A DNA stretch of 64,000 nucleotides from Verrucomicrobiia bacterium (lineage in GTDB: Bacteria; Acidobacteriota; Polarisedimenticolia; Gp22-AA2). The stretch is taken from the NCBI GenBank assembly GCA_035638075.1, contig DASRAU010000021.1, forward strand, positions 73,230 through 137,229, given 5' to 3'. A program made the position numbers and the translations under genes. Position 1 is the first letter of the stretch; the number at the start of each line of letters is the position of its first letter. Shown here in pieces: positions 43,368 to 52,882 of the stretch. The notes under the pieces are model-generated. The model ran no database searches and was not told the origin of the DNA. It saw only the letters and a program-made list of their open reading frames with translations.

Positions 43368-46133
43368 TCAGGCTTCGGCGAAGCGCAGGTCGAAGATCGA
43401 GCGGCCGGCCAGCGCGGCCCGCGCGGCGTATCCGGCGAGCCCGGCGATGAGCAGGACGGCGAGGATCCCCGGACGCGAGTACCACGCCGACCAGTCGAGC
43501 GTCAGGCCGAAGGCGTCGAGGAGATTGTTCGCCACGACGCAGGCGCACAGGGCCAGCAGACCGTGACGCAGCGCGACGAGGATCAGGATCCCCGTGATCA
43601 CGGCGGTCGGCACGAGGGCGATCGCCCCGATTCCGTTCCACGCCTGGAGGGCGTAGACCGTCCAGCCCACGAGCCAGATGGCCAGTCCCGCGAACAACAC
43701 GCGCCGCAGGAGGAAGCGGGCCATCACCAGGACGACCAGGACCACGAGCGCCTGTTCGACCCCGCCGATGATCGCCTCGCCGGCCGGCGGCACCCAGTGG
43801 CGCAGGCCCATCAGGGCATCCAGCTCGAAGATCTCCGGCATCGACGCCGGGCGGCCGAGCCAGGCGGGGAGGTTGGCGGAGACGCGTTCGAGAAGGAACT
43901 GCAGGCAGCCGAACGAGACCCCCACGAGCACGTCGCGGCCCACCAGCGGATCGGAGGTGCGTCCCGAGAGCAGGCGCGTCCACGAGACGATCCGGTCGGG
44001 CCAGTGGCGCCGCACGAACGGCTCGATGGCGATGTAGAGCAGCCAGGCCTGTCCGCCGTTGTAGAGACCGGCGGCCACCAGCCGGACGAGCAGCTCCCAC
44101 TCGTCGAGCAGGACGGCGACGTGATGGGCGGCGCACAGGCCGCGCCCCACCGACACGAGCACGATGAACGCCGCCAGCCGGAACGCCCCGCGCCGATCGC
44201 CGCGCCCCGCCAGGAGATTGCGCCGCGCCATGACGCCGCAGCCGACGAGGGCCAGGATGATGAAGGACAGGATGATGCGCTGCCCCATCGCCTCGGCCTC
44301 CCCCATCTGGAACGGCGTCGCGCGCAGCGGACGGGTCCAGGACCAGACGAGATTGAAGGCCACGGGACGGCCGCGGTAGGACGCGGCCTCCACGCGCACC
44401 GGCAGGTCGGGCGAGCCCGGCGTCGTCCCCTCCCAGGCCGCCCGGGTGTCGGCGTACTCGGGGGGCACCCATTTCGGGTCCACCGGCTTGAACTCCGGCA
44501 GGTTCAGCCCCGCCGCGGCGAAGATCGGCCCCCAGTCGGTTTCGGGCGCCGCTCCCGGCTCGGGATCGTTCTGCGGCGGCACGACATCGAGCTTCCACAA
44601 CCGCCCCTCCGCGGTCAGGACGATCTGCACCATGCCGGGCCGCAGCGGCGCCGGATCCGTCTCCGAGATGCGCCCGCGCATGTTCCCCGGCTGCAGCAGG
44701 GAGGGGCTCTGCCTGTAATAGAAGTAGAGCGCCGGGGGAATCGATCGGGACAGGACGCTCCAGCGCTGCGGCGAGCGCTCCCGCGCCGCGATGTCCTCGA
44801 GGTAGGTGCGGTGCCAGCCGAAGCTCGCGTGGCTGTCGACCGCCGGCTCGGTGTAGCCGAGCGTCCCGAGGATTTCGACCGCCCGGTCATGGAGCACCTC
44901 GGGCGGCTTCGGAGGACGCGCCAGGTCGGTGATCGTCTGGGTCACACTCGCGGCGGCGAACAGCGTGACCGCGACCGCCGCGAGGCAGGCGCCGACGAAG
45001 GCCGGTCTCAGCCCGCCGACCTCGCCCGCCGCGGCGACCATCTCGGGCGAGGGCGTCTCGCCTGCGGCCAGCGCCATCGCCATCGGGTCGCCGCCCGGAA
45101 GCGACGCGGCGACGGCGAGCGCGCTCGCCGGGCGCAGGCGCGGGTCCTCCTCCATGCAGCGCTGGATCGCCCGCTCCACCGCCGGGTCGAGCCCCTCGAC
45201 GAGCGACGACGGCGAGGCAGGCCCGGTCTGGCGCGAGCGGTTCAGCTCGTCCATCGTGTCGCCGCGGAAGGCGCGACGCCCGGTGTACAGCTCGTAGAGC
45301 ACGAGACCGAGGGAGAACAGATCGGCCTTCGGGCCGACATCGCTCCCCTGGATCTGCTCCGGCGCCATGTAGGCGGGCGTGCCGGCGCGCGGCGCGTCCT
45401 CGCCGGCGTCGGCAAGGCTCGCGAGCCCGAAATCGGTGATGCGCGCACGGCCGCGGCCGTCGATCATGATGTTGCCCGGCTTCAGGTCGCGGTGGACCAC
45501 GCCGCGGTCGTGCGCCGCCGCCAGGCCGGCGCAGATCTGCCGCCCCACCTCGGTCGCCTTGTCGGACGGCAGCCGACCGATGCGGCGCAGGAGGGCGGAG
45601 AGATCCTCGCCGTCGACGTACTCCATCGACAGGAACGCCTGCCCCTCCCATTCGCCGATGTCGTAGACGCGCACGACGTTGGCGTGCGACACCTGGCGGG
45701 CGAGGCGCACCTCGTTGTGGAACCGCGCCAGCCGTCCCGCGTCGCGGCTCAGCTCGGGCGGAAGGAACTTGAGGGCCACCGTCTGCTCGAGCTTCAGATC
45801 GTCGGCGCGGTACACCTCCCCCATCCCGCCGCGCCCGAGCATCCCGAGGACGCGGTAGCGGCCGAGCAGCAGGGTCCCCGGAACGAAGCGGCCGTGGTCG
45901 AGGGAATCGGACGACGTCAGGGAGCGATGCTTCGTCTTGGGTCGCGGCGTCCCGCCGGGGATCGCGTCCCGCACCGTCTCGGTCCCCGGGGTCCCGGGGT
46001 CCCCTTGGTGCAGCGTGCGGGTGGCTGTGGGGCCCGGCGCCTCGAGCACGCTGCCGCATCCGGGACAGAAGCGCGACGGGGCGGCGACCGCCTCGCCGCA
46101 GGATGAGCAGGTGCGCGAGACGGTGTCGGGCAT
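43368..46133 (-). CDS. Ser/Thr protein kinase with N-terminal zinc ribbon, extracytoplasmic domain and C-terminal polytopic membrane domain
   Basis: CSSCGEAVAAPSRFCPGCG zinc ribbon. Kinase motifs (LGRGGMGEVYRA, ALKFL, HRDLKPGNIMID, DFGLASL, APEQ). One TM, a ~300-aa region, then 6-7 predicted TM helices at the C-terminus. Confidence 0.8.
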   Translation of the reverse strand: MPDTVSRTCSSCGEAVAAPSRFCPGCGSVLEAPGPTATRTLHQGDPGTPGTETVRDAIPGGTPRPKTKHRSLTSSDSLDHGRFVPGTLLLGRYRVLGMLGRGGMGEVYRADDLKLEQTVALKFLPPELSRDAGRLARFHNEVRLARQVSHANVVRVYDIGEWEGQAFLSMEYVDGEDLSALLRRIGRLPSDKATEVGRQICAGLAAAHDRGVVHRDLKPGNIMIDGRGRARITDFGLASLADAGEDAPRAGTPAYMAPEQIQGSDVGPKADLFSLGLVLYELYTGRRAFRGDTMDELNRSRQTGPASPSSLVEGLDPAVERAIQRCMEEDPRLRPASALAVAASLPGGDPMAMALAAGETPSPEMVAAAGEVGGLRPAFVGACLAAVAVTLFAAASVTQTITDLARPPKPPEVLHDRAVEILGTLGYTEPAVDSHASFGWHRTYLEDIAARERSPQRWSVLSRSIPPALYFYYRQSPSLLQPGNMRGRISETDPAPLRPGMVQIVLTAEGRLWKLDVVPPQNDPEPGAAPETDWGPIFAAAGLNLPEFKPVDPKWVPPEYADTRAAWEGTTPGSPDLPVRVEAASYRGRPVAFNLVWSWTRPLRATPFQMGEAEAMGQRIILSFIILALVGCGVMARRNLLAGRGDRRGAFRLAAFIVLVSVGRGLCAAHHVAVLLDEWELLVRLVAAGLYNGGQAWLLYIAIEPFVRRHWPDRIVSWTRLLSGRTSDPLVGRDVLVGVSFGCLQFLLERVSANLPAWLGRPASMPEIFELDALMGLRHWVPPAGEAIIGGVEQALVVLVVLVMARFLLRRVLFAGLAIWLVGWTVYALQAWNGIGAIALVPTAVITGILILVALRHGLLALCACVVANNLLDAFGLTLDWSAWYSRPGILAVLLIAGLAGYAARAALAGRSIFDLRFAEA

Positions 46134-46138
46134 CGCTC

Positions 46139-51425: not shown

Positions 51426-52882
51426 TCCTGGACCTGGTCCCGCGTGATGCCGTACTGCTCCAGCTTCTTGTAGAGGTTGCTGCGCGGGGTCTCGATCGCC
51501 TTGGCCATGCGCGAGACGTTCCAGCGGAACTCGCGGAGCTTGCGCAGGATGAAGACCTTTTCCGCCTCCTCGCGGTACTGCTGCAGGGTGGCGAACTGCG
51601 CCGGGTCGGGGCCGGACGGTACCGCCGGGCGCGGCGCGTCGAGGATCGCCGGGGCGGCGTGGCCGTCCCCCGCCGGCATCACGATGGGCGGCGGGGAGGA
51701 CGAGAACGGGGAGCCGCCGGCCGCCTGCTCCACCTCGGCGACGTCGCGCTCGTCGATGACCTCCCCCTCCGCCATGATCAGGATGCGCTCGACGAAGTTG
51801 CGCAGCTCGCGGATGTTGCCGCGCCACGGGCGCGCCTGCATCTTGACCATCGCCTCGGGAGAGAAGGTGCGGCGGCGGTAGTTGTTGTCGGCGCAGAAGG
51901 CCTCGACGAAGTGCGCCACCAGCGCCGGGATGTCCTCGCGCCGGTCGCGCAGCGGCGGCGAGGCGATCGGCACGACATTGAGGCGGAAGAACAGGTCCTC
52001 GCGGAAGCGCCCCTCGCGGATCTCCACCGGCAGGTCCTTGTTGGTGGCGGCGATGACGCGCACGTCCACGCGTACCGTCTTCGCCAGCCCCACCGGCTCG
52101 ACCTCGCCCCCCTCGAGCACGCGCAGCACCTTCGCCTGGGTGCGGGCGCTCATGTCGCCGATCTCGTCGAGGAAGATGGTCCCGCCGTCGGCCTGCACGA
52201 ACTTGCCCTGCTGCCGGCCGGTGGCGCCGGTGAAGGCGCCCTTCTCGTGGCCGAAGAGCTCCGATTCGATCAGCTCCTCGGGGATGGCGGCGCAGTTCAC
52301 CTTGACGAAGGGCTTGTCGGCCCGGGCGCTGCGCATGTGGATGTCCCACGCGATCAGCTCCTTGCCGGTGCCGCTCTCGCCGCTGATGAGCACGGTCGCG
52401 GAGGTCGGCGCGGCCCGCGCGATGGCCTCGCGCACCGAGCGCAGGACCGGCGCCTCGCCGATCATGCGGTACCCGGCCTCGACCTTGTGCCGGAGGACCA
52501 GGTTCTCCGCGCGCAGGCGCTGCCGCTCGATGGCGTTGCGCAGGGCCGCCAGGACCCGCTCGGTCTCGAGCGGCTTCTCGAGGAAGTCGTACGCCCCCTT
52601 GCGCAGCGCATCCACGGCGGTGGGGATGTCCCCGTGCCCCGAGACCATGAGGATGGGCGTGTGGGCGTCGCGCGCCCGCGCCTGCTGCAGGACCTCCATC
52701 CCGTCCATCCCGGGCATCTTGATGTCGAGGAGCACGGCGTCCGGCGACTCGCGGCGCAGGGTTTCGATCCCCTCGGGCCCCGAGGCGGCCTCGATCATGT
52801 CGTAGCCCTCGTATTCCAGGACCATCCGGAGCGATTTCCGGATCGCCTCTTCGTCGTCGATGACCAGGATGCGGGAGCGCAT
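51422..52882 (-). CDS. Sigma-54-dependent response regulator (NtrC family)
   Basis: Receiver ([11 protein letters not shown]...[11 protein letters not shown]), AAA+ sigma-54 interaction domain ([39 protein letters not shown]) and C-terminal Fis-type HTH. Confidence 0.85.

Follow-up and report, generated by a model that had tools for sequence, protein, structure and literature searches.

In Escherichia coli, short-chain fatty-acid catabolism, including a thiolase step, is encoded by atoDAEB and controlled by AtoS/AtoC, AtoC being a sigma-54 enhancer-binding protein (EBP), and in Bacillus subtilis a hydratase/dehydrogenase, a thiolase and an acyl-CoA dehydrogenase (ACAD) are encoded together in the fadN-fadA-fadE operon. 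Acidobacteriota, which dominate many soils, encode very many Hanks-type Ser/Thr kinases, to our knowledge almost none of which has a known signal or target. In the Myxococcus xanthus pkn4 (pktD1)-pfk operon, which is syntenic among relatives, a Hanks kinase phosphorylates the co-encoded enzyme (PMC2887360). Response regulators and transcription factors are also phosphorylated by kinases of this type, among them GraR, VraR, DosR and VirS, the last being a PknK target that controls the mymA operon (PMC4601284). Here we describe a receptor-type Hanks kinase that carries an unrecognised sensor module and forms the optional last cistron of a predicted operon that also encodes three β-oxidation enzymes and an NtrC-type sigma-54 enhancer-binding response regulator (EBP2). 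The locus, from an acidobacterial lineage resembling Polarisedimenticolia, lies on contig DASRAU010000021.1 (assembly GCA_035638075.1), in a stretch of 64,000 nucleotides (positions 73,230 to 137,229, about 70% G+C) that is referred to below as the window.

The five genes, defined by open reading frame (ORF) listing and translation and identified with Pfam and NCBIfam, are all on the minus strand in the order EBP2, thiolase, fadB, ACAD and kinase (Table 1), with the strand and end coordinates that had been given in a preliminary description of the window. Their successive junctions measure -4, -4, +5 and +5 nt. The preliminary description had joined the first four genes by ATGA overlaps, which is true of EBP2/thiolase and thiolase/fadB but not of fadB/ACAD, where there is a 5-nt spacer (TAAcgaccATG). 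Its 5-nt gap between ACAD and the kinase is correct, and this spacer contains a Shine-Dalgarno sequence (TAGGAGCGATG), with AGGAG just 5′ of the kinase ATG. No terminator was detected between any of the five genes in a terminator scan. A hairpin with an 8-bp GC stem followed by CTTCTTCGTG, inside the 3′ end of fadB, was treated as a chance occurrence, four terminator-like sites having been found against 4.4 expected. A shared strand, minimal spacing and an adjacency that is conserved in relatives are what is expected of a single operon, and the string of five coupled genes proposed earlier thus behaves as one predicted transcription unit. The kinase would be translated from the EBP2-fad messenger RNA, which would tie its expression to that of the β-oxidation genes, and it is the last cistron since a convergent plus-strand gene ends 22 nt beyond its stop codon.

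EBP2 is an NtrC-family sigma-54 enhancer-binding response regulator with every domain and motif expected of one: receiver (REC, PF00072), Sigma54_activat AAA+ (PF00158), AAA_lid_14 (PF25601) and Fis-type HTH_8 (PF02954) domains, all above their cut-offs, a GAFTGA loop and a phospho-acceptor Asp53. Its best NCBIfam model is the AtoC equivalog (NF008469), at 437.9 bits against a cut-off of 714. The thiolase has Thiolase_N and Thiolase_C domains and scores 428 bits with TIGR01930, above the cut-off of 240.55. The FadB/FadJ-type enzyme is complete (ECH, 3HCDH_N and 3HCDH) and reaches 694 bits with the FadJ equivalog model, below the 869 required, while the ACAD has complete N, M and C domains followed by ACAD9-ACADV_C, a C-terminal domain of the ACAD9/VLCAD type, and scores 376 bits with its best model, the Bacillus-type FadE, below a cut-off of 600. 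Because the FadJ and FadE scores fall under these cut-offs, functions were assigned at family level only, and at that level the operon is predicted to encode a complete β-oxidation cycle. The enzyme types are the same three that are found in the fadN-fadA-fadE operon, although the gene order differs and the Bacillus operon has neither an EBP nor a kinase. As in the AtoSC system, an NtrC-type EBP is associated with fatty-acid catabolic genes that include a thiolase. However, no histidine kinase was found within the operon or next to EBP2 (Pfam and gene neighbourhood), so there is no adjacent AtoS counterpart, and EBP2 appears to be co-transcribed with the catabolic genes, before which no convincing sigma-54 promoter was found.

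The 5′ boundary of the operon is marked by a predicted terminator, belonging to an upstream gene for a REC-trypsin-PDZ protein, which is immediately followed by an extended -10-like element (TGTTATCAT). A TAnnAT sequence (TAtcAT, TAtgAT or TAaaAT) is kept 36-51 nt before EBP2 in most kinase-bearing and kinase-less orthologues, and 13 distinct orthologous loci have both the terminator and the conserved -10 element 5′ of EBP2. Since the -10-like element persists although its spacing to the hairpin varies between loci, we infer that a housekeeping-sigma promoter drives EBP2, the fad genes and the kinase; transcription would then start from a sigma-70-type extended -10 promoter right after the upstream gene's terminator. 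At the other end, a promoter-like sequence (TTGACG-N18-TAGCAT) precedes the gene for a saccharopine-dehydrogenase-like (SDH-like) protein in the kinase-less spacers of L066-L068 and L074, which suggests that this gene is transcribed separately and that the operon ends at ACAD or at the kinase. In consensus scans of the window, no good GG-N10-GC sigma-54 match was found before the fad genes. Two candidates were rejected: a site upstream of EBP2 that shares CAACGCTTGC with the site of the protease gene but is missing the -24 GG, and a weak in-frame match that is explained by coding conservation of the HTH and is lost in L066/L095.

A block consisting of a further NtrC-type regulator (EBP1), the REC-trypsin-PDZ protease, EBP2, thiolase, fadB, ACAD, kinase and the SDH-like gene recurs in relatives, in which the sensor half of the kinase is 73, 68, 66, 50 or 43% identical to that in the window. 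Over all fad-linked relatives, sensor-half identity ranges from 41 to 73%, versus 73-92% for ACAD. Ten kinase-bearing loci were compared, representing about eight distinct sequences, since L059 is a repeat of L004 and L072 of L007. Relative to the ACAD stop codon, their kinases start at -4 (ATGA/GTGA), at -1 (TGATG) or between +10 and +42 nt, against +5 in the window. Because gene order and tight junction recur in independent relatives despite such divergence of the sensor, the arrangement goes beyond chance. By neighbour joining, the fad-linked kinases group in a single clade, which takes in a tandem duplicate (P0018), apart from 50 non-linked members of the same family, and their branching broadly matches that of the ACAD tree. 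Tight junctions and a single clade argue for co-transcription and vertical inheritance of the kinase, and indicate that it probably joined the 3′ end of the operon a single time and was then passed on with it.

We favour, with a probability of roughly 0.45, the reading that this is a co-transcribed accessory receptor kinase, the most plausible local targets of which are EBP2 or the β-oxidation enzymes. Orphan EBP2 and the co-encoded enzymes would be the most economical candidates, and a logic in which a Hanks kinase acts on such a partner is supported by the pkn4-pfk and PknK-VirS precedents. As in the former, the kinase gene shares a predicted operon with metabolic enzyme genes and is syntenic in relatives, but its partners here are a β-oxidation cycle and a sigma-54 regulator instead of phosphofructokinase, and the kinase has the build of a polytopic receptor, its sensor being uncharacterised, and is absent from sister lineages. 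As in the latter, a kinase would act on a transcription factor, which in the case of VirS controls an operon that modifies lipids and the cell envelope (PMC4601284), although PknK is soluble and encoded outside the operon, VirS is AraC-type and no sigma-54 EBP, and the kinase-to-EBP2 link is a proposal.

How far the kinase is needed became apparent in an ACAD-seeded metagenome scan, which gave 38 orthologous loci (ACAD 72-90% identical). The kinase is present in seven of them (L059, L063, L064, L065, L070, L072 and L075), ACAD runs straight to the SDH-like gene in 13 (L066-68, L073, L074, L076-78, L080-83 and L093), another insert or unmatched DNA occupies the junction in eight, and the remaining ten contigs end too near ACAD to be classified. 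ACAD in the kinase-less loci is 74-77% identical to that of the window, and these loci are equally related. In the neighbour-joining ACAD tree these loci form one clade, to which must be added L084, nested among the kinase-bearers, where the kinase was lost or replaced. Midpoint-rooted trees, the rooting of which is not secure, favour ancestral presence of the kinase and at least two losses; kinase remnants were not found in the ACAD-SDH spacer of kinase-less loci, an absence that fits gain as well as loss. By the preliminary description's own standard, coupling to the pathway would be refuted if close relatives had lost the kinase at this position, and at least 13 orthologous loci have no kinase there. 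The kinase is therefore dispensable, a lineage-specific and optional accessory that is not core to the pathway: since sister lineages keep the operon without it, it adds an accessory layer to β-oxidation genes and a regulator that work in its absence.

The 13 direct ACAD-SDH junctions and the replacement at L084 weigh against a specific role of the kinase in this operon, and so do several other observations. The ACAD/SDH junction takes varied and unrelated inserts, which suggests that the operon end may simply be a permissive position. No Ser or Thr was found that is fixed in the EBP2, thiolase, FadB or ACAD of kinase-bearing lineages yet absent from their kinase-less counterparts. Coupling within the operon holds, but an obligatory role of the kinase is not supported. 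It is also conceivable that the kinase is driven from a promoter inside the 3′ end of ACAD. Finally, thiolase, fadB or ACAD was found within 10 kb in none of 50 family members from other genomes. A serious rival, which has a real chance of being correct, therefore sees the kinase as a general sensor of the environment or the envelope that has pleiotropic targets, settled at a permissive operon end and co-transcribed for compactness, with no specific link to the fad genes or EBP2. Intact operons in kinase-less sister loci, a junction that holds tandem kinases, an opposite-strand ORF of ~600 aa, a Usp-like ORF, a 1052-aa gene or nothing, the lack of a clade-specific Ser/Thr signature in the operon proteins, tandem paralogue arrays elsewhere and the fast divergence of the sensor relative to ACAD are all as this rival would have it. 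It is harder to square with stop/start overlaps or very short spacers in every kinase-bearing lineage, or with the inheritance of one clade along with the operon over considerable divergence, which is more than a neutral passenger predicts. If the kinase does not phosphorylate EBP2, the locus would be an ordinary case of gene accretion at an operon end, and sister lineages with and without the kinase on the same operon offer a natural comparison for its contribution.

The kinase starts with a cytoplasmic C4 zinc ribbon, the Pfam matches to which are below the gathering score (E = 4e-4) but which is borne out, as described earlier, by the family consensus, CxxC...RFCxxCG being kept there and in all fad-linked orthologues. 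The catalytic domain scores 180.1 bits with PF00069 (cut-off 31.7), and its translation has the Hanks motifs GRGGMG100-105, K122, E141, HRD214-216, DFG234-236 and APE257-259, together with Thr252 in the activation loop. The motif columns are conserved across an alignment of 45 family members, in which a column was called conserved at 90% or more. It is thus a Hanks-type kinase with an intact and predicted catalytically competent domain. The latter is followed by a near-invariant juxtamembrane segment (LPGGDP..ALAAGETPSPEMVAAAGE). In its N-terminal catalytic domain, juxtamembrane linker, one transmembrane (TM) helix and extracytoplasmic sensor it resembles the PASTA kinases PknB, PrkC and Stk1 and other Mycobacterium tuberculosis TM kinases. 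However, it scores only 263.5 bits with the PknB_PASTA model NF033483 (cut-off 450), aligning over positions 2-264, which is the kinase, and has no PASTA repeats by Pfam; unlike these proteins, it adds the N-terminal zinc ribbon and a C-terminal membrane bundle, and its sensor has no solved match.

The sensor half (residues 368-921) was modelled by AlphaFold2 with high confidence (pLDDT 92 and pTM 0.90, built on 45 homologues), and the outer domain modelled by itself gave pLDDT 88. The layout given in the preliminary description stands for the ribbon, the kinase domain and the single TM helix, but the outer region is predicted to measure ~215 aa instead of ~300, and the C-terminal domain to have 8-9 helices where 6-7 TM segments had been counted. 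Three invariant motifs of the bundle, RGDRRGA, YIA(L/I)EPxVRRxWP and SWTRLLxGRxxDPLVGRD, are found in Arg-rich loops that are predicted to be cytoplasmic by the positive-inside rule, and these, with the juxtamembrane segment, account for the invariant positions outside the kinase domain in the 45-member alignment. This suggests that a signal may reach the juxtamembrane segment by way of the bundle's cytoplasmic face. The outer domain and the helix bundle would read an extracytoplasmic or membrane signal, the conserved loops and the juxtamembrane segment would relay it, and the kinase domain would then phosphorylate Ser/Thr residues of cytoplasmic targets. Searches for a relative of this module gave no match with Pfam at E <= 10 (554-aa, 309-aa and 217-aa pieces), with NCBIfam on the sensor half or with phmmer against PDB sequences. 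Foldseek searches of the PDB gave best E-values of 0.11 for the sensor half and 0.059 for the outer domain, with TM-scores <= 0.22. The remote-homology and structure check that had been recommended for the C-terminal domain, as run here with AlphaFold2, Foldseek and Pfam, thus gave a confident model and no known relative: as modelled, the sensor half is uncharacterised and has no solved relative in the PDB, which makes such a widespread module a good target for structural and ligand studies. In 'YIAIEPFVRRHWP', a CPBP/Abi-like EExxxR motif was suspected at first, but this reading was rejected, the remaining CPBP motifs being missing and no match supporting it. Nothing relevant to this architecture was found in the literature on Acidobacteria.

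Table 1. Features of the kinase locus and its surroundings, in window coordinates
Feature	Position	Strand	Size or residues	Remarks
EBP2, NtrC-type sigma-54 enhancer-binding response regulator	52882..51422	minus	486 aa	
Thiolase (acetyl-CoA C-acyltransferase, FadA/FadI-like)	51425..50136	minus	429 aa	
FadB/FadJ-type bifunctional enoyl-CoA hydratase / 3-hydroxyacyl-CoA dehydrogenase	50139..47902	minus	745 aa	
ACAD, VLCAD-like	47896..46139	minus	585 aa	
Receptor-type Hanks Ser/Thr kinase	46133..43368	minus	921 aa + stop (922 codons)	
C4 zinc ribbon of kinase	46056..46109	minus		C9-x2-C12...C23-x2-C26
Kinase catalytic domain	45123..45857	minus	residues 93-337	PF00069
Juxtamembrane segment	45021..45101	minus	residues 345-371	near-invariant
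First transmembrane helix	44940..45008	minus	residues ~376-398	translation and AlphaFold2 model
Extracytoplasmic alpha/beta domain	44301..44939	minus	~215 aa (residues ~399-611)	several invariant Trp
C-terminal membrane bundle	43371..44300	minus	8-9 helices	translation and AlphaFold2 model
GC-rich hairpin, predicted terminator	52937..52963	minus	12 bp, 11 G-C, then T-tract	terminator scan; conserved in orthologous loci
Extended -10-like (TGnTATCAT) sigma-70 element	52924..52932	minus		41 nt 5′ of EBP2 start
Hairpin inside fadB 3′ end	47938..47918	minus	8-bp GC stem	treated as chance
Weak in-frame sigma-54 match	51523..51508			rejected
Strongest sigma-54 match	55186..55171	minus		one mismatch; 15 nt before REC-trypsin-PDZ gene
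REC-trypsin-PDZ protease gene	53021-55156	minus		
EBP1	~56748..55342	minus		
ligA (NAD-dependent DNA ligase)	58820..56757	minus		
Histidine kinase	60265..58817	minus		
ORF with CxxCH motifs	40187-43345	plus	1052 aa	
SDH-like gene	38910-40091	minus		
Second Hanks kinase catalytic domain	~25536-26294	minus		31% identity to operon kinase

The architecture, which had been called unusual, proved to be anything but rare. A search of 90%-identity cluster representatives with the 554-aa sensor half returned at least 5,107 proteins, nearly all of them kinases of 820-930 aa matched over the full query, and when representatives at 50% identity were scanned exhaustively, 5,911 of them matched at E <= 1e-3, or about 5,900 clusters at this identity, and 2,160 still did so at E <= 1e-30. 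The module is nearly always C-terminal to the kinase domain, after ~340-370 residues; matches of 530-610 aa with no other domain are probably fragments at contig ends, and P0198, the one candidate for a different output, has NTP_transf_5 after the module and appears to be an artefact of gene calling, either fused or truncated. By label, its sources are in the great majority Acidobacteriota (Polarisedimenticolia, Terriglobia, Bryobacterales, Pyrinomonadaceae, Blastocatellia, Vicinamibacterales and Thermoanaerobaculia), with a few bins labelled otherwise. A protein identical to the window kinase is encoded on a 210-kb MAG contig labelled 'Verrucomicrobiae', whereas the closest relative is labelled Candidatus Polarisedimenticolia, bin labels being unreliable. 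The family keeps one order of parts, from the cytoplasmic zinc ribbon and the predicted active kinase domain through the near-invariant juxtamembrane segment and single TM helix to the outer domain and the bundle. The kinase architecture is thus uncharacterised yet, judging from these searches, common.

The size of this family bears directly on the lipid or fatty-acid-dependent signalling suggested in the preliminary description, taken here to mean that membrane lipids or free fatty acids are sensed by the polytopic C-terminal domain, the kinase tuning β-oxidation. Membrane location and predicted co-transcription with a full β-oxidation cycle speak for it, the bundle being large, membrane-embedded and endowed with conserved residues, but there is nothing positive beyond these and it is pure conjecture. 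No likeness to a known lipid-binding or lipid-sensing domain emerged from Pfam, NCBIfam, the PDB or Foldseek; thousands of paralogues have this module, with no fad linkage at the 50 loci sampled; most conserved residues are in predicted cytoplasmic loops and not in the bilayer core; and sister lineages dispense with the kinase. Lipid or fatty-acid-dependent signalling is therefore unsupported, and we regard it as unlikely.

A different partner for the kinase is suggested by the genes upstream of EBP2. The strongest sigma-54 match in the window, TGGCACAACGCTTGCT, precedes the gene for the REC-trypsin-PDZ protein and is conserved in relatives L001, L004 and L007/L008. The product of this gene combines a receiver, a trypsin-like protease and two PDZ domains, and an NtrC-type regulator is encoded on either side of it, an arrangement conserved in the same relatives. 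It is unusual for a response-regulator-HtrA fusion to be under sigma-54 control. The kinase might phosphorylate EBP1, EBP2 or this HtrA-like protease and so control the protease-gene promoter, giving a response to envelope state or protein quality in which the fad genes would be bystanders. The only strong sigma-54 promoter in the window is indeed this one, EBP2 has no adjacent histidine kinase and response regulators are known Hanks-kinase substrates (PMC4601284). However, the block formed by EBP1, the protease gene and EBP2 is equally conserved in kinase-less lineages, and a histidine kinase encoded before ligA and EBP1 could serve these receivers, all of which makes such a circuit rather improbable. 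It would be just as bold to propose that a new class of membrane-embedded sensor reports a membrane, lipid or envelope cue through Ser/Thr phosphorylation of EBP2, replacing the missing histidine kinase, with the outer domain and bundle defining one of the largest uncharacterised families of bacterial receptor kinases; we hold this joint proposal to be a long shot. Phosphorylation of EBP2 by the kinase, which the favoured accessory role would allow, would, if real, provide a clear example of sigma-54 control in which a Ser/Thr kinase takes the part of a histidine kinase.

Several observations were made on genes around the operon and on other members of the kinase family. ligA, which encodes a housekeeping ligase, lies between a sensor histidine kinase and the NtrC-type response regulator EBP1 in a minus-strand row. 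The convergent neighbour of the kinase gene is the 1052-aa ORF, which has CxxCH motifs (CSSCH and CVQCH) and a weak β-propeller match, is placed between the kinase and the SDH-like gene, and is absent from every relative examined. Among the orthologous loci, an opposite-strand ORF of ~570-620 aa ending in ...FVYRFP, possibly a GT-C/PMT-like glycosyltransferase, is found 3′ of ACAD at L061, L069, L071 and L091, a Usp-like ORF is found at the ACAD/SDH junction of L084, and two tandem kinases of the family studied here (P0005 and P0018) are found at one such junction. Another Hanks kinase catalytic domain is encoded elsewhere in the window and is only distantly related to that of the operon kinase. 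Tandem arrays of two or three paralogues of the kinase family were also found in other Acidobacteriota genomes (L020, L028 and L044), which points to local duplication as a probable mode of expansion of the family.

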